A stretch of DNA of 64,000 nt. It comes from a virus. Lineage: Duplodnaviria; Heunggongvirae; Uroviricota; Caudoviricetes. Location: positions 184,333-248,332 of the IMG/VR virus record IMGVR_UViG_3300028260_000001, one strand, 5' to 3'. The position numbers and the translations under genes were made by a program. Below, piece by piece: positions 3,450-62,563 of this stretch. The notes under the pieces are model-generated. The model was given only the letters and a program-made list of their open reading frames with translations, ran no database searches and was not told the origin of the DNA. Each line of letters starts with the position of its first letter. The first letter of the stretch is position 1.

Positions 3450-3737
3450 CTACCGGCGTAGAATTTTGTCTAGTTCTTTATCGAAGTCTGGATGACTGAT
3501 TTCGTACATAGGTCCGATTGCAGTCTGAGCCGTGCTATTTGCAATCTTCACGCATTCTTCGATCTTGCTGTGTATACCACTGATGGTTTGCGCTTTCCAG
3601 AAGTTCGGAACAGGTGCAATGTCATTGCTATTGACACCCCCGTATACCGCAGAGTTGATCCGATTCGAACGACGGTTCAGTGCCAGCTTACGGAACAACT
3701 TAGATTGACCAGTTTTCATTTCTATCCTTAACGACAA
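3450..3737 (-). CDS. hypothetical protein
   Basis: 95 aa ORF between terminator 3741-3758 and dcd. Confidence 0.6.
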   Translation of the reverse strand: MSLRIEMKTGQSKLFRKLALNRRSNRINSAVYGGVNSNDIAPVPNFWKAQTISGIHSKIEECVKIANSTAQTAIGPMYEISHPDFDKELDKILRR

Positions 3738-3740
3738 AAT

Positions 3741-3758
3741 GGCTACCCGAAGGTAGCC
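3741..3758 (-). terminator. hairpin terminator, UUCG loop
   Basis: Minus strand GGCTACC-TTCG-GGTAGCC directly after the stop of 3767..4330. Confidence 0.85.
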
Positions 3759-3766
3759 GTCTTTAT

Positions 3767-4330
3767 TCAGTCAGACCAGTTCGAGCTACCAGAATCATCC
3801 CAGGAACTCGAACGAGAGCCGGAGTCATCGAACGAACTGGAGCGAGTATCGTCGAAGCGAGTAGACGACTCCGGTTCAGCTGGTTGAGAAGCTTGTTCAC
3901 GTGCAGTGTTGTAAGCATTCTCAGAACGTACGCGTTCTTCATGATCGCCCCAACCAACCGTACGCGCAGGCTCTGGTTGGGGATCAGTCTTTAGCAGATC
4001 GCTAATGATGTCGGTGACAGCATCGACGGCCAGTACTGTGGTGACCGTATCCAGTAGACTATCGCTCCGATCAACTACTGGAGAACTTACAGCTGCACGG
4101 GATGGACGATGTACTTGTTGCTGTGCCACGTAAGCAGGTTGCCGAGAGACACTGGCTACACCTGTACTGAATGCAGCAATATTGCGATCACGGATTTCCG
4201 ATTCCCCTGCAGAGCGAACCGGAGTAGAGCGTCCCAGACTGATAACAATATCAGTACGTGGTGGTCGTGCAGGCGTTACTTGTTTTGGTTTGAAACCGAA
4301 CCAGCTTTTGATGCGTTGCCACAGAGTCAT
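3767..4330 (-). CDS. hypothetical protein with Ser/Asp-rich low-complexity C-terminus
   Basis: 187 aa ORF, tail SSSFDDSGSRSSSWDDSGSSNWSD. Confidence 0.8.
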   Translation of the reverse strand: MTLWQRIKSWFGFKPKQVTPARPPRTDIVISLGRSTPVRSAGESEIRDRNIAAFSTGVASVSRQPAYVAQQQVHRPSRAAVSSPVVDRSDSLLDTVTTVLAVDAVTDIISDLLKTDPQPEPARTVGWGDHEERVRSENAYNTAREQASQPAEPESSTRFDDTRSSSFDDSGSRSSSWDDSGSSNWSD

Positions 4331-7138: not shown

Positions 7139-7627
7139 CTAGTTTTTGATCTTAGCCACAAAGATGCGGTTCAGATCTTGATGCAGCGGGGCTTTCTCAG
7201 AGCTAACTATCATTATCCGATTTTGAACATCCGGATTGAAGAAGTTAGTACTGTGGGTCAACCGGAACGTATTGTCCGGTAGTTCATCGAAGTGATAAAA
7301 CGGCTCGATGTTCATTGGCGTCAGTACAGTGTACCTCGTTACAATGAGTGGTCGTCCATCACCTAGGATAAAGTGGGGGAAATAACGCTTACCTTCTTCA
7401 TGGCGAATTACCTGGATATCGGTTTCATCCGGGATATCGCCATCGAAGAATGTCCCTTCGGTATGCAGCAGAATCCATTGGTTGCCTTTGCGCTCTAGGT
7501 GACAAAACTTCTTGTTACCTGGTTGCAGAGGAATGGATTTGTAGATCACGTTGTCACACAGAATCGTTTCGCCAGTGTCCAATACGAAGAACACTTTTAG
7601 CTTAACGGGTGGTTGCTTCTTTGCCAT
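7139..7627 (-). CDS. hypothetical protein
   Basis: 162 aa ORF coupled to upstream gene. Confidence 0.75.
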   Translation of the reverse strand: MAKKQPPVKLKVFFVLDTGETILCDNVIYKSIPLQPGNKKFCHLERKGNQWILLHTEGTFFDGDIPDETDIQVIRHEEGKRYFPHFILGDGRPLIVTRYTVLTPMNIEPFYHFDELPDNTFRLTHSTNFFNPDVQNRIMIVSSEKAPLHQDLNRIFVAKIKN

Positions 7628-8058
7628 CAGTACAGATGCTCCGAGAACAGAGTTCCGTCAGGACCTCCATCAGGTAATAGTTTGCGCCCTTGTGCAGCGC
7701 ACAGATCCCATGCTTCTTTACGGGTGTAGTACGTACCGAACTGATCGATGAAGCCTTGATCATATTCGTTACCAGCGTAAGCACGCAATGCGTCCATGCC
7801 TACGAGTTTGATAGTCATCGTCATCGATACAGAATAGTGACGACTACCGGTGACAATGAAATCGCCGTAGCGATTAGCAGCACAGACGATCACACGGGTG
7901 GACTTATACTTGTCCCAACGCCATCCCGTGAAACCATCCTCATCTTTCTCAATCCAGCAGCGATCCATGTATTCTTTATTCGCATAAGCAGCAGCTTCAC
8001 GAATGAGATCAACACGGGTTTCTAGTGGGATCTTCTTGAGGGTAGGGTTACGCTCCAC
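7627..8058 (-). CDS. conserved phage hypothetical protein (CAAN...GSRH...QGFIDQFG..YTRKEAW family)
   Basis: Motif pattern recalled from small proteins of many large phages; function unknown. Confidence 0.75.
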   Translation of the reverse strand: MERNPTLKKIPLETRVDLIREAAAYANKEYMDRCWIEKDEDGFTGWRWDKYKSTRVIVCAANRYGDFIVTGSRHYSVSMTMTIKLVGMDALRAYAGNEYDQGFIDQFGTYYTRKEAWDLCAAQGRKLLPDGGPDGTLFSEHLY

Positions 8059-8542
8059 ACAGTGCCTCGTAGTTAGGGATCAGCGTGAAGATGGTGTAGG
8101 TGTTGCCTTCGCTACTGACTTGCATTTTCGGTAGCATCATGTGGCCTGCATCTTGAGCGAAAATATACAATGCCATCATCTGGTCAGCTGGAATCATACC
8201 AGCCAACGAGATCGAGATACCTTTGAAGACTTTGTCGCTTTCTGGATTCGGATCATCCACATTACCGTATCGACGTTGACCAGAACCGAAGATCGCTTCA
8301 CATGCTTGCAGTGCATGGAACGTGTCTTCATCAGTGAAAGCTTTGTGCACGTCCAGATACGTCAGCGTGGTGATCGACTGGATCGAGAAGAACTGGCGAG
8401 GGAATGCTGGGTATTGCGCATCGTTGTCAACATCGACGCTGAACTCAACTGTACCGCAACCAACTTGTGCCATGACGGGAATGTTTTTGCCGTCAGCTGT
8501 TTTCAGCGACATGCGTGGAATAGGCTGTAACTCTTGAGACAT
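8048..8542 (-). CDS. hypothetical early protein, first gene of the operon
   Basis: 164 aa ORF, GGAG SD, 29 nt downstream of TATATTAC. Confidence 0.8.
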   Translation of the reverse strand: MSQELQPIPRMSLKTADGKNIPVMAQVGCGTVEFSVDVDNDAQYPAFPRQFFSIQSITTLTYLDVHKAFTDEDTFHALQACEAIFGSGQRRYGNVDDPNPESDKVFKGISISLAGMIPADQMMALYIFAQDAGHMMLPKMQVSSEGNTYTIFTLIPNYEALCGA

Positions 8543-8570
8543 TTAAAAACTCCAGTTGGAATGCAATAAC

Positions 8571-8590
8571 GTAATATAGATTTGAGATTT
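8571..8590 (-). promoter_or_regulatory. phiKZ-type early (virion RNAP) promoter
   Basis: Minus strand AAATCTCAAATCTATATTAC; TATATTAC is the established phiKZ early consensus. Confidence 0.8.
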
Positions 8591-8599
8591 CTTAGAAAC

Positions 8600-8771
8600 G
8601 ACATAATGGTTACCCGAAGGTAACCACCAGAGGTCAGGCTCTAATAGACAAGGTACGTGTATGAGCATTCGTTGCTTCTCAGCAATAATGGTCACGCTCA
8701 TGGGTGCAACTAGGCTGGATCACCTCCTCATGGACTGCGCTTAAGCGCGGGCCTCGTCTATACTATCATGC
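8600..8771 (-). ncRNA. candidate structured small RNA carrying a 16-nt complement of the 16S rRNA 3' end
   Basis: Own UUCG terminator (8607-8626), nested stems with GAGA tetraloop (8661-8701), AGGAGGTGATCCAGCC at 8728-8713, no plausible ORF; ends inferred. Confidence 0.45.
8607..8626 (-). terminator. hairpin terminator, UUCG loop
   Basis: TGGTTACC-TTCG-GGTAACCA then TTATGTC on the minus strand; no annotated gene ends here. Confidence 0.75.
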
Positions 8772-8836
8772 ATAAAGTATTTTATTTCTGATCGGGGCTA
8801 ATCTTATGACTTCTAATAAAGAACAAGGGCTCAACC

Positions 8837-10957
8837 ATGCAAAGCTATTTCCGACGTTTGATGGGCGTCGTAGTTGCTAAAGAACAAGGCAACGAAATCA
8901 TCCTCTCCGGTGTAAACGGGAATCATCTCGTTCGGGACATTTCCAAGTATTGGAAGACTTCACGTATTGCGGCCAACATCTTCAACCACGCTTCATCTAC
9001 AGAACTTCGGTTCTATAAGTTCTTTGCTCCTGACTTCTTGTACATCCTCAACAGCGTGATGAACTACCGTTCCCGATTCATCTCGGTACGAACGGCAGCT
9101 GCTATCCGTGAAGCAATGCTGACATCTACATGGGTTGGTAAAGCGTTTGCTAAACCTGAGCCTAACGCGGTAGGTCGCCTGGACTTCTCCAAACTAAACA
9201 ACCTGAAGTTCTCGGCTAAGCAACCACAGATGGAATACTTCCAGTCGTACAATACTCGACTGGATCAATGGAACCTTGTGGGCGATCTGCTACACGCGGA
9301 ACCTGGTACTGGCAAGACCTACATGTGTACAGCTATCGGTGAGATGCTCGGTGCTGACAAGATGGTATTCTTCTGTGAGAAACGAGCAGTTGAAGTTGTG
9401 TGGGAAGCCTCGATGGATGAGATGTACCATCAGAAGCAAACTGTGTGGTCCTCAGCAATGGGCAGACCTTACAATGGTGAGCGGATTATCATTGTTCACT
9501 ATCAATGGCTATCGAACTTCCTCGACCTAGTACAGACCGGTGTGTTTAAAGGCCAGAAGATCTTCACTGCGCTTGATGAATGTCACAACATGAACGACCC
9601 TAAGTCCATGCAAACGCAGCTCTATATCGCGTGCGTTAAGGCCCTAGGCTCACAAGACAACATCTTGGCTTCTGGTACTCCAGTTAAAGCACTGGGTGCT
9701 GAATTGATCACGTTGATGACTGTATCCGATCCATTGTTCACTCCTGAAGTGGAAGCTAGGTTCCGGTTGATCTACGGGAAAGAAGGTGGTAAGGGTCTGG
9801 ACATTATCCGACATCGAATGGGCTTCATGTCATTCTTCATCGCTAAGACTGAGAAAGACACTGGTCTCAAACCACCGATCAACAAACCCTACAAGATCCA
9901 GATCCCGAATGGTAACGACTTCACACTCCCGGCTATTAAGGTAGTGATGGAAGCGTTCATTAAAGAGCGTGTCAAGTACTACAAAGATCGGAAACCACAG
10001 GATGAGAAATACTGGGCCGAATGCTTACGGTTACACGAAGCTACCCTCCGTACAAAAGAACAGACTGCTGCTTATAACGAATATCGTCGTGTACTGAAGA
10101 TCGTTATCGCTAACCCAGATCCACGATTCACGGGTGAAGAGATCAAGGCTACTAACAAATACGAGAAGCTCGTGTTCGGTCCATCGTTACCACAGTCGAT
10201 GATTCATGAGTTCCGTGATGTTAAGTCGGCTATCAAATACGTGATGCTGAAGATCCAAGGTGAAACCCTCGGACGTATCCTGGGTGGTAAGCGTATTGAA
10301 TGTCACGTAGCTATGGTTCCACATGTTGACTGGGTTGGTATCGTGGAATCCACTCAGAAGAAGACGATCATGTTTACTTCGTTCGTGGAAGCACTAGAAG
10401 CCTCGGATTCCCATACCCGTAAACTCGGTATGACTCCAATTGCTGTCTACGGCAAAACGTCTAACGAGCTGTCTTCGATTGTAGGTCGTTTCGATAAAGA
10501 TCCTAAGCTGAACCCGCTACTCGCTACTTACGCGTCCCTTGCAACTGCTGTGCGCCTAACCATGGCTGACACCATGTTGATTCTGAACTCGCCATTCCGT
10601 AGCTATATCCTAGAACAGGCTATTGCCCGTATCTGGCGTATTGGTCAGGATTCTCAGTGTGTGGTTTACACCGCTGTGTTGGATACTGGTGACGTACCTA
10701 ACATCTCGACCCGTTCGGCTGACATCTTGGCTTGGTCTCAAGCAATGGTTGAAGAGATCACTGGCGTCAAATCTCCATTCGAACAGAAGGAAGCATTTGA
10801 ATCCTACCTGGCTAACCAACCAAAAGAGTTTGATGAAAACAAGATGTTCTATGCGGTACTACAGAAATCAATGGAAGCCTACGATCTAACCGTAGACCAA
10901 AAAGAATTCGAAGTACCTAAATACACAGCCAACCGAGTCCCTGGATGGATGAGATAA
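8837..10957 (+). CDS. SNF2/DEAD-like superfamily 2 helicase
   Basis: Walker A AEPGTGKT, LDECH, ASGTP, QAIARIWRIGQ. Confidence 0.9.
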   Translation: MQSYFRRLMGVVVAKEQGNEIILSGVNGNHLVRDISKYWKTSRIAANIFNHASSTELRFYKFFAPDFLYILNSVMNYRSRFISVRTAAAIREAMLTSTWVGKAFAKPEPNAVGRLDFSKLNNLKFSAKQPQMEYFQSYNTRLDQWNLVGDLLHAEPGTGKTYMCTAIGEMLGADKMVFFCEKRAVEVVWEASMDEMYHQKQTVWSSAMGRPYNGERIIIVHYQWLSNFLDLVQTGVFKGQKIFTALDECHNMNDPKSMQTQLYIACVKALGSQDNILASGTPVKALGAELITLMTVSDPLFTPEVEARFRLIYGKEGGKGLDIIRHRMGFMSFFIAKTEKDTGLKPPINKPYKIQIPNGNDFTLPAIKVVMEAFIKERVKYYKDRKPQDEKYWAECLRLHEATLRTKEQTAAYNEYRRVLKIVIANPDPRFTGEEIKATNKYEKLVFGPSLPQSMIHEFRDVKSAIKYVMLKIQGETLGRILGGKRIECHVAMVPHVDWVGIVESTQKKTIMFTSFVEALEASDSHTRKLGMTPIAVYGKTSNELSSIVGRFDKDPKLNPLLATYASLATAVRLTMADTMLILNSPFRSYILEQAIARIWRIGQDSQCVVYTAVLDTGDVPNISTRSADILAWSQAMVEEITGVKSPFEQKEAFESYLANQPKEFDENKMFYAVLQKSMEAYDLTVDQKEFEVPKYTANRVPGWMR

Positions 10958-19429: not shown

Positions 19430-19468
19430 GGGCTTTGATAGTTTTAAATAAAAGAAAATACGGCATAA

Positions 19469-19488
19469 GGCTCTCCCGAAGGAGAGCC
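19469..19488 (-). terminator. hairpin terminator, UUCG loop
   Basis: GGCTCTCC-TTCG-GGAGAGCC then TTATGCC. Confidence 0.85.
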
Positions 19489-26724: not shown

Positions 26725-26744
26725 GTAATATAGATCTGAGATTT
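26725..26744 (-). promoter_or_regulatory. early promoter
   Basis: AAATCTCAGATCTATATTAC. Confidence 0.8.
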
Positions 26745-29607: not shown

Positions 29608-29631
29608 ATTGGAACCTTTAGACAAAATAAA

Positions 29632-29649
29632 GCCTACCCGAAGGTAGGC
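29632..29649 (-). terminator. hairpin terminator, UUCG loop
   Basis: GCCTACC-TTCG-GGTAGGC after the 2334 aa gene. Confidence 0.85.
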
Positions 29650-29656
29650 CCTAGAT

Positions 29657-32600
29657 TTAGACTGGAACAGGGTAAGCAGACTTGTTGGCCTGACGACTCT
29701 GTTGCTGGGGCATACTATTGCCCTGGCTCGGAGTGCCCTTACCCACCAGTGTATGCAGTGCCGCCAACATTTGCTTCTGTACTTCAAGTTGTTCTTGTTG
29801 TACAGACATGATAGCAGCGTCCTGTTTAGTGGACTGTTGTACTTGCTGTGCCCGTTGCTGATCGCGTGCAGCTGAAGCTGCTGCCGCGGCATCCGCCACT
29901 GGGTTATTACTCGCGTTAGCCTGACCACTCGAAGGTGCGGCTTCAGCTGGAGCATTAGCGCTAGGAGCCATCACACCCACAGGAGCAGTAGATGCGCCTG
30001 CTGGGGCTTGAGTCGCAGCACTCAGAGCAGTGGACAATGAAGGACCACCAGAACCAGTGTTGGTTGGAGTAGAACCTGTAGCGGAAGGACCACCAGGCAT
30101 TGCCGATACACCAGGAATGAACTTGTCATCCTTCTTGGCTTCGCCCTCTGCTGCTTTCGCTTTAGCAGCGGCTTCCGCTTTCTCAACATCCTCCACTTTC
30201 AACGGAACTGCTGCACCATTGGCAGTACCAGCCGATGCCATTGCACGGAACTTTTCCATACGCTTATCGAACGATGCTTCGATCTGTGCCAGAGTCCGCT
30301 GTTGACCAGACGCCTTGTCTTTAAAGATAGACGGGTTGGCTGCAGCTTCTTTCGGGAACGCGTATGAACCGATGGTGTTCTTAGGCAACTTGAGCCACTT
30401 AACTGCAGTACCAGGACCGAGGAAGTGAGCCAGGTAAAGGTCGATATCAGTCGGGTCCTTACCGGTTGCCTTCTTGATAACGTTCATCGAGTACTTCATG
30501 TACTCCGCACCCATCAGTGCGTTGATCCGTGGATCCAAGCGTAGACGACGACCAACGTCAGCTGGCAAGCCGTACTTCTTGGAATGCTGTTGCAGCATCC
30601 AATCCCACGTCGAGTTGATGAACTGGAACCAACCTGTAGCTGAACCACCTGCACCTGCTTTAATGGTCCAGTCGAAACCAGATTCCATTGCACAGAAGAT
30701 CATCAGGTATTCAACAGGTACACCGACCATCTGGGAAACAACTTCCATGGTCTTCCGAGAACCTTTAGCATCTTTCGATGTAGGCATCGGAACTTGTTCC
30801 CATGAACCGCCATTACCTTCAGACACGTAACCATAGGACTTGCCGGTTACAGCCTCGTATGCAGCCCCATAGGCCGATACAGCGCCAGCAGCAACCGCAC
30901 TACCTGCCGATTGAACTGCGCCACCTACAGTCGATGCAGCGCTACTCAGAGCACTACCCACACGGTCAGCTGCACCACTAACGGCATTAGTAACCGCGTT
31001 GAATGCACCCGACACTTTATCCACTACGCCATCAAAGAACGACTTACCGGATTCAGCATTGGTAGCACCAGCAGCTTGTGCACCTGCCGACAGAGTCGGT
31101 GAGGACAACACAGCAGCAGCTTGTTTCTCGAGATACATCACGTCCCAATCAGCCATCTGCTTCAAGCCTTTCAGATCACCCTTGATAGGGAAGATTGAAG
31201 GAGTAGACCAAACAGATTGTCCATTGGTATTGGTAGAACCCATGACGCCTTTAGCAACACGGACTTGGTCACCCAGTTTCATCTGAGTAGAAGCCATCTC
31301 CGGTTTACCACGATACGTAGAACGAGCCATTGTCAGGAACATTTCAGCAACAGGAATGAAACGATCTGTCAACCAGTTCACAAACTTAACACGGTCAGTA
31401 CCATGGTCGGCTGTGTTCATACCAAACAGTGGACCAGCAGCAACAATGAATTTCTCCATGTCGCCATTAAACTTCACGATGCCGGATTGGTCTGTCTTAG
31501 ACTGAAGGTCCAGACGAGTTTCCATCGCGATCAACGATTCCATTTGGTTCTTGTTCAGTACTTCCATACCGTAGGCACGAGCACGGATAGCATCGAGAGC
31601 AGCCAGTTCTTGAGCAGCAATTGGTTTAGGCATGATACCGTTAGCAACTGCCGAAGCACTTACTGCAACACCAGCAACCTTAGCCATGTTCTGAACTTTC
31701 TGCTGTACGGTTTTAGCTGCCTGGTCTTGAGACTCTTGGTTCTTCTTACCAATAGCCTTAGCCTCTTGAGCAGCCTTAGTAGCAACAGCCGAAGCTGTAG
31801 CAGCTACAACAGCAGCGCCTTTCTCTTTGTTCTCCTTGGCTTCTTCGGAAGGTTCGGTAGCTTTAGGTTTATTACCCGGAAGTGCAGCCTTCTCCTTTTC
31901 AGGATCGATCTTGTACTTCTCAGACAACTCCTTAATGCGTTCCTTAGTTTCCTCGATAGTGTCGTCTAGCGGTTCGTCATCACCGAATGGGTTATCCCGG
32001 CAAGCGAACGGACCACCATCACCGTATTCCATGGTGATCTCTTTGACCAACGTACCTTTCAGTGCATCATCGACTTTCTCTTCGATATCGGTTAACGACA
32101 ACTGAGTCTTGCCGATAGTGTCAATACCTTTCAGCCACTGACAGAACACTGGTTTGAAACGCAAGTCCATCCAACGAGCAAAGCGATGAATAGCAGCTTC
32201 GTCATTCTTATCAAAGCCCATGATATCCAGGATGGCTTTACCACCCGCAGCACCAATGTTCATCTGTGGGGATTGGCCACGTAGAGCGGTTTTCTCCAAC
32301 AGTTGTTCCAGGGCTAGGATCTTGTGACGTTGACGTGTAGACGTGATACCGTACTGTAGCATACGAACCGACATGAACTCGCCTTTAACACCAGCGAAGT
32401 ACTTGTAAGTAAAGTAACTAGCTACACCGACACCACCCACTACAGCTGCACCAATCAACACAGGAGCTGACACGAGAGCAGCCAACGAAGAACCAACCAT
32501 CATTGCCCCACGAGCAGCCATCTGGCCACCAGCTGTCGCCATGAAACGACCACCTTGTGCAGCAGCAAATTTACCTACTCGAGAACCAGCAATCTTACGA

Positions 32601-51276: not shown

Positions 51277-51296
51277 GTAATATAGATCTGAGATTT
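51277..51296 (-). promoter_or_regulatory. early promoter
   Basis: AAATCTCAGATCTATATTAC, identical to 26725-26744. Confidence 0.8.
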
Positions 51297-62516: not shown

Positions 62517-62548
62517 GTGGATTGATTAATCATCAGATTGGGCATAAA

Positions 62549-62563
62549 GGAGCCCGAAGGCCC
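62549..62563 (-). terminator. imperfect UUCG hairpin terminator
   Basis: GGGGCC-TTCG-GGCTCC then TTTATGCC. Confidence 0.6.

Follow-up and report, generated by a model that had tools for sequence, protein, structure and literature searches.

The minus strand of positions 8773-8597 in a 64,000-nt stretch of a 305-kb virus record carrying terminal repeats (IMG/VR record IMGVR_UViG_3300028260_000001, positions 184,333 to 248,332; the whole stretch is referred to below as the window) is, on comparative sequence evidence, a free-standing gene that encodes a structured, non-coding RNA ~160-175 nt in length. The same comparison identifies it as a member of a real, conserved, and previously undescribed phage RNA family whose conserved face is antisense to the 3′ end of 16S rRNA. 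Pairing of this face with the 16S tail is probably the working principle of the RNA. Among named phages, the closest relatives are RVTF4 and two phages of Pseudomonas syringae, D6 and Psa21; all three are phiKZ-like jumbo phages.

The plus strand at 8713-8728 reads GGCTGGATCACCTCCT with zero mismatches, as reported in an initial annotation of this DNA, which had noted a 16-nt complement to the end of the host 16S rRNA. The match is beyond chance: the runner-up in the 64-kb window has 9 nt of Watson-Crick complementarity to the final 23 nt of 16S rRNA, and the match at this locus increases from 16 to 18 nt once one G·U pair is allowed. The GGCUGG variant of the 16S 3′ end had been called the Pseudomonas type. 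It is indeed common in Pseudomonas genomes, but it is also found in Acinetobacter, Halomonas, and others. A sequencing or primer artifact is ruled out because 20 phage genomes and contigs, each sequenced independently, have the motif within a covarying structure.

The complement is the sole invariant run in the alignment of the family (AGG-R-GGTGATCCAG); all of the other invariant columns are single bases. In the window, AGG-R-GGUGAUCCAG appears at 8728-8715. It is invariant in 20 of 20 homologues and is located, unpaired in the consensus, between helices P2 and P3. Conservation thus extends well beyond the AGGAGG core, with GGRGGUGAUCCAG retained in every homologue. The two motif positions that do vary retain the pairing with 16S rRNA: the change of GGAGG to GGGGG gives a G·U pair, and that of CCAGCC to CCAGUC gives a U·G pair. 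Several lineages lengthen the match, either to the terminal UUA or deeper into helix 45. The duplex between the motif and 16S rRNA is predicted to contain 15-21 bp with an energy of -30 to -38 kcal/mol, and predicted co-folding with the 16S 3′ domain provides a gain of 15-30 kcal/mol net of the opening of internal structure. A search of the phage genome for complements of the motif gave no standout site within 2 mismatches (13 matches with ≥2 mismatches versus 6 for the control); this target search covered the phage genome, and host mRNAs were not searched. Pairing with the neighboring helicase gene's 5′ untranslated region (5′UTR), suggested by eye, was rejected, the duplex energies being equal to those of shuffles (z ~0).

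The RNA folds as a three-way junction with three covarying helices (P1-P3), of which P1 closes the molecule at its 5′ end. In an 18-sequence alignment, 92.6% of the helix cells are paired, versus 71% in shuffles and 33-42% when the partners are slid, and changes on both sides are found in 30 of the 38 helix pairs. This alignment was fitted to the model, which favors the structure somewhat; the margin is nonetheless large. All 13 pairs of P3 exhibit changes on both sides, and the P3 tip is capped by GAGA, GGGA, GCGA, or GUGA across the homologues. The outer pairs of P1 covary, and the inner AAGG/CCUU pairs are nearly invariant. The differences that separate D6, RVTF4, and Psa21 from the window are located in the stems and are compensatory. 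The elements that had been described for the minus strand are all present, namely, the GCGC-UUAA-GCGC hairpin, the AUGAGC/GCUCAU stem with its UUGCU-GAGA-AGCAA tip, and the UUCG hairpin followed by AUUAUGUC. The proposal of a discrete RNA gene with its own terminator is supported by the covariance model, the covariation, and the UUCG terminator.

The strand is set by the same alignment. The minus-strand helix cells contain 48 G·U but 17 A·C combinations, and the GNRA loop at the tip of P3 and the UNCG loop of the terminator read correctly on the minus strand alone. These observations contradict the alternative put forward in the initial annotation, in which a plus-strand transcript would be an anti-Shine-Dalgarno decoy, as does the location of the phiKZ helicase transcription start site (TSS) P107 outside of the element. 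A further proposal, that an ACCUCU segment near the 3′ end masks the motif as a switch, did not hold: the segment is confined to the Psa21-like and phiKZ groups and is missing from the 201phi2-1, PhiPA3, PS119XW, and DT01 versions. In the window, ACCUCU (8629-8634, minus strand) sits directly before the terminator; in phiKZ (L154:1633-1654) it makes up the 5′ side of an additional hairpin, and terminator T095 maps after this hairpin.

The nucleotide identity of the RNA region to D6, RVTF4, and Psa21 is 96.6, 89.9, and 77.3%, respectively. The corresponding values are 88, 71, and 73% for the helicase flank and 70, 59, and 61% for the minus-strand gene on the other side. The RNA gene is better conserved than both flanking coding sequences. 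The coordinates of its parts and of the two boundary promoters are collected in Table 1.

Table 1. Coordinates of the RNA gene, its parts, and the adjacent promoters in the window
Feature	Positions	Strand	Remarks
Whole RNA gene	8597-8773	-	Covariance-model limits, including a few promoter-proximal bases; model R1, 211.6 bits, E 5e-51
Promoter-like element ATAGTATAG	8758-8766	-	phiKZ late type; putative TSS ~8759/8758
P1 5′ strand AUAGACGAGG	8752-8761	-	Partner 8653-8644; ACAAGG-like core resembles 16S nt 1500-1505
P2 hairpin GCGC-UUAA-GCGC	8737-8748	-	Compensatory changes, e.g., GCAC/GUGC, CGUGC/GCACG
16S-tail complement UGAGGAGGUGAUCCAGCC	8713-8730	-	Antisense to last 18 nt of 16S rRNA, one G·U pair; unpaired P2-P3 junction
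P3 stem	8661-8701	-	Internal loop; GNRA-capped tip; tip hairpin 8672-8685, loop GAGA
J3/1 (ACACGUA) and P1 3′ strand (CCUUGUCUAU)	8644-8660	-	Holds weaker copy of the second 16S-complementary block
Intrinsic terminator	8597-8629	-	C(UUCG)G-loop hairpin 8629-8604, then AUUAUGUCGUU
Early-type promoter TCTATATTAC (boundary, outside RNA)	8571-8580	-	Serves operon starting at 8542
Helicase late promoter GGCTAATCTTATG (boundary, outside RNA)	8796-8808	+	Putative TSS ~8808; conserved in alignment A1 (window, D6, RVTF4, Psa21)

Homologues were collected with covariance models. A model built from five sequences gave full-length matches in phiKZ, PhiPA3, and PS119XW. Subsequent covariance searches added 201phi2-1, PA7, and eight IMG/VR jumbo contigs, and a second model added pPa_SNUABM_DT01 (DT01), the helicase of which is just 38% identical. 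The 20 homologues are from phiKZ-like Pseudomonas jumbo phages, including phiKZ, PhiPA3, 201phi2-1, PS119XW, Psa21, and DT01, and the family spans at least five phage genera of the International Committee on Taxonomy of Viruses plus unclassified lineages. A pattern scan that omitted the 16S-like motif (TATAG.CAAGG...CTACG..CCTTG) provided 4 viral and 69 metagenome matches, of which the covariance model confirmed one new member, metagenome L386. When IMG/VR was scanned with the 15-mer CTGGATCACCTCCTC, more than 117 matches were obtained and Psa21 and the contig L021 were recognized as homologues; the 15-mer by itself is not diagnostic of the family. A scan with CTCTAATAGACAAGG gave mostly chance matches and was set aside, L009 and L025 being unrelated. 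At the sensitivity used, no covariance match was found in OBP, EL, Erwinia RAY, or Ralstonia RP12, and five IMG/VR jumbo records whose helicases are ≤40% identical also gave no homologue. The family is rare beyond the Pseudomonas jumbo phages.

When 7500-10000 was scanned permissively (up to E = 10), no Rfam 15 family overlapped 8597-8773. The RNA is not described in the literature searched on phiKZ and jumbo phages, including the ChmC paper and a 2026 jumbo-phage review, nor is it described in two transposon-mutagenesis preprints, one on phiKZ and the other with a relevant passage on Serratia phage PCH45.

The genomic setting of the RNA gene varies. In the window and phiKZ it is found upstream of a gp204-type operon, in PhiPA3 it is inverted and upstream of the helicase, and in PS119XW it is antisense to both neighbors. 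In 201phi2-1 a distance of 1.5 kb separates the gene from the helicase; in DT01 the distance is ~30 kb, and the gene lies between unrelated genes. This variation in position and orientation argues against a purely cis-acting leader. In the window, a 294-nt gap separates the divergent genes, as had been noted, with the minus-strand gene starting at 8542 and the helicase at 8837. The left flank is the minus-strand operon that begins at 8542, and the right flank is a plus-strand SNF2 helicase gene (8837-10957) homologous to phiKZ gp203. The helicase gene is ~1 kb longer in PhiPA3 (L148 2989-6159) and PS119XW (L149 3001-6150) than in phiKZ and the window, and the tblastn match falls in two pieces, which suggests that the longer genes carry an inserted segment, e.g., an intein, an intron, or an extra domain.

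A promoter-like element of the phiKZ late type precedes the RNA. Either AATAnTATAG or TGTATG appears upstream of P1 in all homologues, and the element resembles mapped phiKZ late promoters with the ends AATACTATA or ATACTATG. A TATG that had been read as the promoter core is present at 8774-8771; the conserved promoter-like element, however, is ATAGTATAG. We infer that transcription starts at ~8759/8758, at the first P1 pair, and the mature RNA probably runs from ~8759 to ~8600.

All members of the family terminate in a hairpin followed by UUAUG(U/C)C. For phiKZ, the published ONT-cappable-seq tables list terminator T095 at position 213001 on the plus strand of NC_004629.1 (10.1101/2023.10.13.562163). 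T095 falls within the phiKZ homologue (212844-213042, plus strand), right after the first 3′ hairpin. Therefore, an RNA of the predicted strand ends at this position. The phiKZ RNA would span ~212853-213001 (plus strand). A conserved terminator motif was published for 61 phiKZ terminators. The combination of a C(UUCG)G hairpin and UUAUG(U/C)C recurs at gene ends elsewhere in the window (8600-8619, 19462-19481, and 62541-62559, all on the minus strand), and two more terminators, at 3730-3828 and 29621-29725 (minus strand), were caught by the RNA model via its 3′ part only. The hairpin with this tail looks like a phage-specific terminator signature.

The early-type promoter TCTATATTAC is located between the RNA terminator and the next gene, an arrangement that is the same in phiKZ, and the next operon therefore has its own promoter. 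TCTATATTAC agrees with mapped phiKZ early promoters, in which ..TATATTAC.. stands shortly upstream of the TSS. The motif appears 9 times in the window versus ~3 expected, and 8 of these sites are on the minus strand; exact sites are found at 8571-8580, 26725-26734, and 51277-51286 (minus strand), together with six one-mismatch sites. Because TCTATATTAC matches the mapped phiKZ early core TATATTAC, it probably marks the early promoters of the window phage. On the other side of the RNA gene, GCTAATCTTATG at 8797-8808 matches the 3′ end of phiKZ P107, a validated late promoter (TSS 212808) that is located upstream of PHIKZ203. This helicase promoter fires away from the RNA element.

Co-folding with 16S rRNA identified a second block of complementarity. 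The CUACG of J3/1, which is the other conserved single-stranded segment, and the nearly invariant CCUUGU of the inner P1 3′ strand pair with CGUAG and ACAAGG of 16S rRNA, respectively, and PS119XW and DT01 have a further ACGAC that pairs with GUCGU. The second block covers 16S nt ~1493-1515; its place is immediately 5′ of the tail site, in collinear order. The block was ranked against all 1522 windows of a real Pseudomonas viridiflava 16S rRNA. It is the best site on the whole 16S rRNA (rank 1 of 1522) in 11 of the 20 members and ranks 6-141 in the others. The rank-1 members include the most divergent one, the outgroup DT01, and one member that was found without the motif. No complementarity was detected to the spacer, or pre-16S 3′ trailer, that follows 16S rRNA (z ~0), and the pairing ends at the mature 3′ end. 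The earlier suggestion that the RNA might invade helix 45 gains support from this second, collinear complementarity. As a sequence, the RNA resembles the final ~50 nt of 16S rRNA in antisense, with P3 replacing the apex of helix 45.

The 5′ arm of the terminator stem in the window, GGUUACCUU (8618-8626, minus strand), is also complementary to 16S rRNA, with one U·G pair to AAGGUAGCC (nt ~1503-1511). This arm is a possible third 16S-pairing stretch, and it may be a coincidence since it is confined to the window/Psa21 group and the terminator sequences differ elsewhere.

The following mechanism is proposed. The RNA gene would be transcribed, probably from the late-type promoter, and transcription would end at the terminator of the gene. 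P2 and P3 would flank the unpaired junction that displays AGG-R-GGUGAUCCAG, and this junction would pair, on the host 30S subunit, with the 3′ tail of 16S rRNA, which is single-stranded and comprises the anti-Shine-Dalgarno region (nt ~1527-1542). The resulting helix would be far longer than any mRNA ribosome-binding site (RBS) of this phage. It would occupy the mRNA docking site, so that the RNA would act as a competitor of, or a clamp on, translation initiation. The genes of the phage use short Shine-Dalgarno (SD) sequences of 4-5 nt, such as AAGG, GGAG, and GAGG, and since these are so short, the RNA would be expected to out-compete any mRNA for the subunit. With the tail as a toehold, pairing could spread through the second block into helix 45 and the linker between h44 and h45; this step is less certain because both are structured in mature subunits. 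Candidates for the benefit to the phage are shut-off of translation, parking or tethering of ribosomes, and protection of the 16S end.

In its fullest form the proposal describes a natural antisense RNA against rRNA, which would use the anti-SD tail as a toehold and strand-invade helix 45 and the linker (nt ~1493-1529), with the opening of P1 supplying the last block, and would thereby unfold the 16S 3′ minor domain beside the decoding center. This extended version is tentative, and we consider it less likely than not. As far as the literature search reached, no trans-acting antisense RNA against mature rRNA was found described for bacteria or phages.

Several points weigh against the pairing of the RNA with 16S rRNA in mature subunits, or against the strength of the evidence for it. 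The homologues are related to one another, and counts across the 20 members are consequently not independent. In thermodynamic folding, the mean probability that the motif is unpaired is just 0.3-0.55, although the pairings predicted for it are not conserved. The copy of the second block in the window is weaker than in other members (ACACG, rank 59 of 1522); it keeps an 8-bp match of UACCUUGU (8655-8648) with ACAAGGUA of 16S rRNA (nt ~1500-1507). When the region after the motif was aligned to antisense 16S rRNA with gaps tolerated, the result was only weakly significant (z 0.3-3.1), and the window-rank test was relied on instead. Nucleotides 1493-1529 of 16S rRNA are structured and largely buried in the mature 30S subunit, and the second site may therefore be unusable on intact subunits. 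Because the SD sequences of the phage are themselves short, a global block of the anti-SD would hit phage translation too, unless dose or timing limits it. In the published phiKZ tables T095 is a mapped 3′ end only, with no TSS, transcription unit, or non-coding RNA entry, and the RNA is unreported in a 10-min phiKZ Grad-seq study.

The burial of the inner blocks is accommodated by a different partner. The RNA would still pair with the 16S 3′ end, but with a free or exposed 3′ domain, as in late assembly intermediates or a 3′ fragment released by a toxin, and it would block maturation or serve as a sponge or counter-defense. Colicin E3-type ribosomal RNases cut at A1493/G1494, and MazF-type enzymes cut near A1500. 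The collinear blocks cover ~nt 1493-1542, which is about the span of the toxin-released fragments, and RNA ligases and other RNA-repair-type functions are noted for jumbo phages in the 2026 review. The pairing nevertheless ends exactly at the mature 3′ end, with none to the precursor trailer, which argues against a precursor-specific target. In addition, the complementarity bridges neither cleavage site in most members, and no RNA-repair gene is linked to the locus. We regard an exposed 3′ domain as an unlikely target.

An equally unlikely explanation is that the RNA acts via a protein or other partner and that its likeness to antisense 16S rRNA is either the relic of a captured rDNA fragment or the mimic of an RBS that titrates an RBS-binding protein. 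The plus-strand blocks do appear in 16S order, ACAAGGTA at 8648-8655 and then GGCTGGATCACCTCCT at 8713-8728, as would be seen in a captured fragment, and phages do encode RNA-binding proteins, one example being ChmC. Decay would be expected of a relic, but no block other than the tail complement is invariant across lineages whose helicases are 38-58% identical, and the substitutions within the motif preserve pairing. The AGGGGG of the phiKZ type also does not contain the GGA core of Rsm/CsrA sites.

The motif may instead be an orphan super-SD, that is, a 30S docking site that protects the RNA or a read-through transcript from decay in the manner of a STAB-SD stabilizer or standby site. STAB-SD elements are SD-like sequences that lack a start codon; they bind to the 3′ end of 16S rRNA and stabilize RNA. 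The phage RNA lies upstream of a same-strand gene in the window, phiKZ, and PhiPA3. The RNA, however, is ended by its own terminator, the next gene is separated from it by an early promoter, and in PS119XW it points into the antisense of a neighboring gene. Stabilization needs 5-9 nt, compared with an invariant 13 nt and a second block here, and the known action of STAB-SD blocks the 5′-3′ exonuclease RNase J1 and was described in Gram-positive bacteria. Stabilization is accordingly rated as improbable.

Control of the downstream operon in cis, by a riboswitch or an attenuator, would account for a structured domain and a terminator upstream of an operon, and many phiKZ 5′UTR terminators yield short RNAs. 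The terminator sequence and the ~10-60 nt linker are not conserved, however, and there is no conserved alternative pairing for an antiterminator. Given also the separate promoter past the terminator, the variable genomic context, and the lack of an Rfam match, such control is very improbable.

The least credible explanation is an ordinary strong RBS for a small protein: short frames follow the motif in some members (25 codons from TTG in RVTF4, 15 from GTG in 201phi2-1), but the start codon, spacing, and frame after the motif are all unconserved, a start codon in range is missing from 5 of the 20 homologues and the remainder differ in spacing, frame, and length, the indels are not multiples of three, and the helices covary as RNA. 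The motif is thus not the RBS of a conserved small open reading frame (ORF). The minus strand of the window contains no usable start, as had been stated: the ATG at 8731-8729 gives M-R-R-stop and the TTG at 8709-8707 gives 3 codons, and the next ATG (8701) opens a 52-aa frame (8543-8701).

This 52-aa ORF crosses P3 of the RNA, the terminator, and the early promoter. In DT01, an annotated 40-aa coding sequence, PA10_00263 (MW735835.1 229921-230043), covers the RNA homologue in antisense. The two calls, each lying over an RNA gene, are probably spurious.

Phage proteins alone, e.g., PHIKZ014, have so far been implicated in the control of host ribosomes by nucleus-forming jumbo phages, and the RNA described here would be the first phage RNA aimed at the anti-SD end of 16S rRNA. 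If the binding is real, it would provide a natural RNA tool to block or tag the 30S subunit, establish rRNA as a new target class for regulatory RNAs, and explain why an intergenic region is better conserved than the neighboring genes. If strand invasion also proves true, the phage could switch off, park, or re-purpose ribosomes by RNA alone. Should the ribosome hypothesis fail, a new covarying RNA family with no Rfam entry would remain. The family is accessible in phiKZ, the best-studied jumbo phage, where a 3′ end has been published.

Four sets of known systems are relevant for comparison. Synthetic oligonucleotides complementary to the 16S 3′ end block initiation in vitro, and phage-encoded copies of bS21 may tune initiation at the anti-SD region. 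In neither case is the agent a structured RNA that occurs naturally and acts in trans: the former are artificial, and the latter is a protein. Non-coding RNA candidates were previously reported for phiKZ and 201phi2-1, namely, the 3′UTR of PHIKZ298, the 5′UTRs of p40, PHIKZ221, and PHIKZ302, and regions upstream of gp182 and gp277 (PMC8545117, PMC10914365, PMC11512511). These candidates are from the same phages, are similar in size, and are likewise bounded by phage promoters and the conserved terminator motif. They differ in that they originate from other loci and none is reported to match 16S rRNA; the phiKZ homologue of the RNA is listed only as terminator T095.

Val-tRF, an archaeal tRNA fragment, binds to the small subunit, where it perturbs h44, h45, and the anti-SD, and it prevents both initiation and the joining of subunits (PMC11009984). 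It resembles the phage RNA, for which binding to the small subunit is proposed, in being a small non-coding RNA. Val-tRF is cellular and stress-induced, however, and it binds by shape and contacts at the decoding center, with no long antisense pairing.

The STAB-SD of Bacillus thuringiensis cry3A binds 30S subunits without initiating translation (PMC4113751). The RNA in the window is similarly SD-like, has no start codon at a functional spacing, and is complementary to the 3′ end of 16S rRNA. Being a short motif, STAB-SD stabilizes in cis the mRNA in whose 5′UTR it is located; the phage RNA is not so located, having its own terminator, a separate early promoter beyond it, and an antisense position in PS119XW. 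In contrast to STAB-SD, the phage motif is 13 nt when counted as invariant positions (15-21 bp as a duplex) and is displayed by a free-standing, structured, and terminated RNA gene that also contains a candidate second block complementary to 16S nt ~1493-1515.

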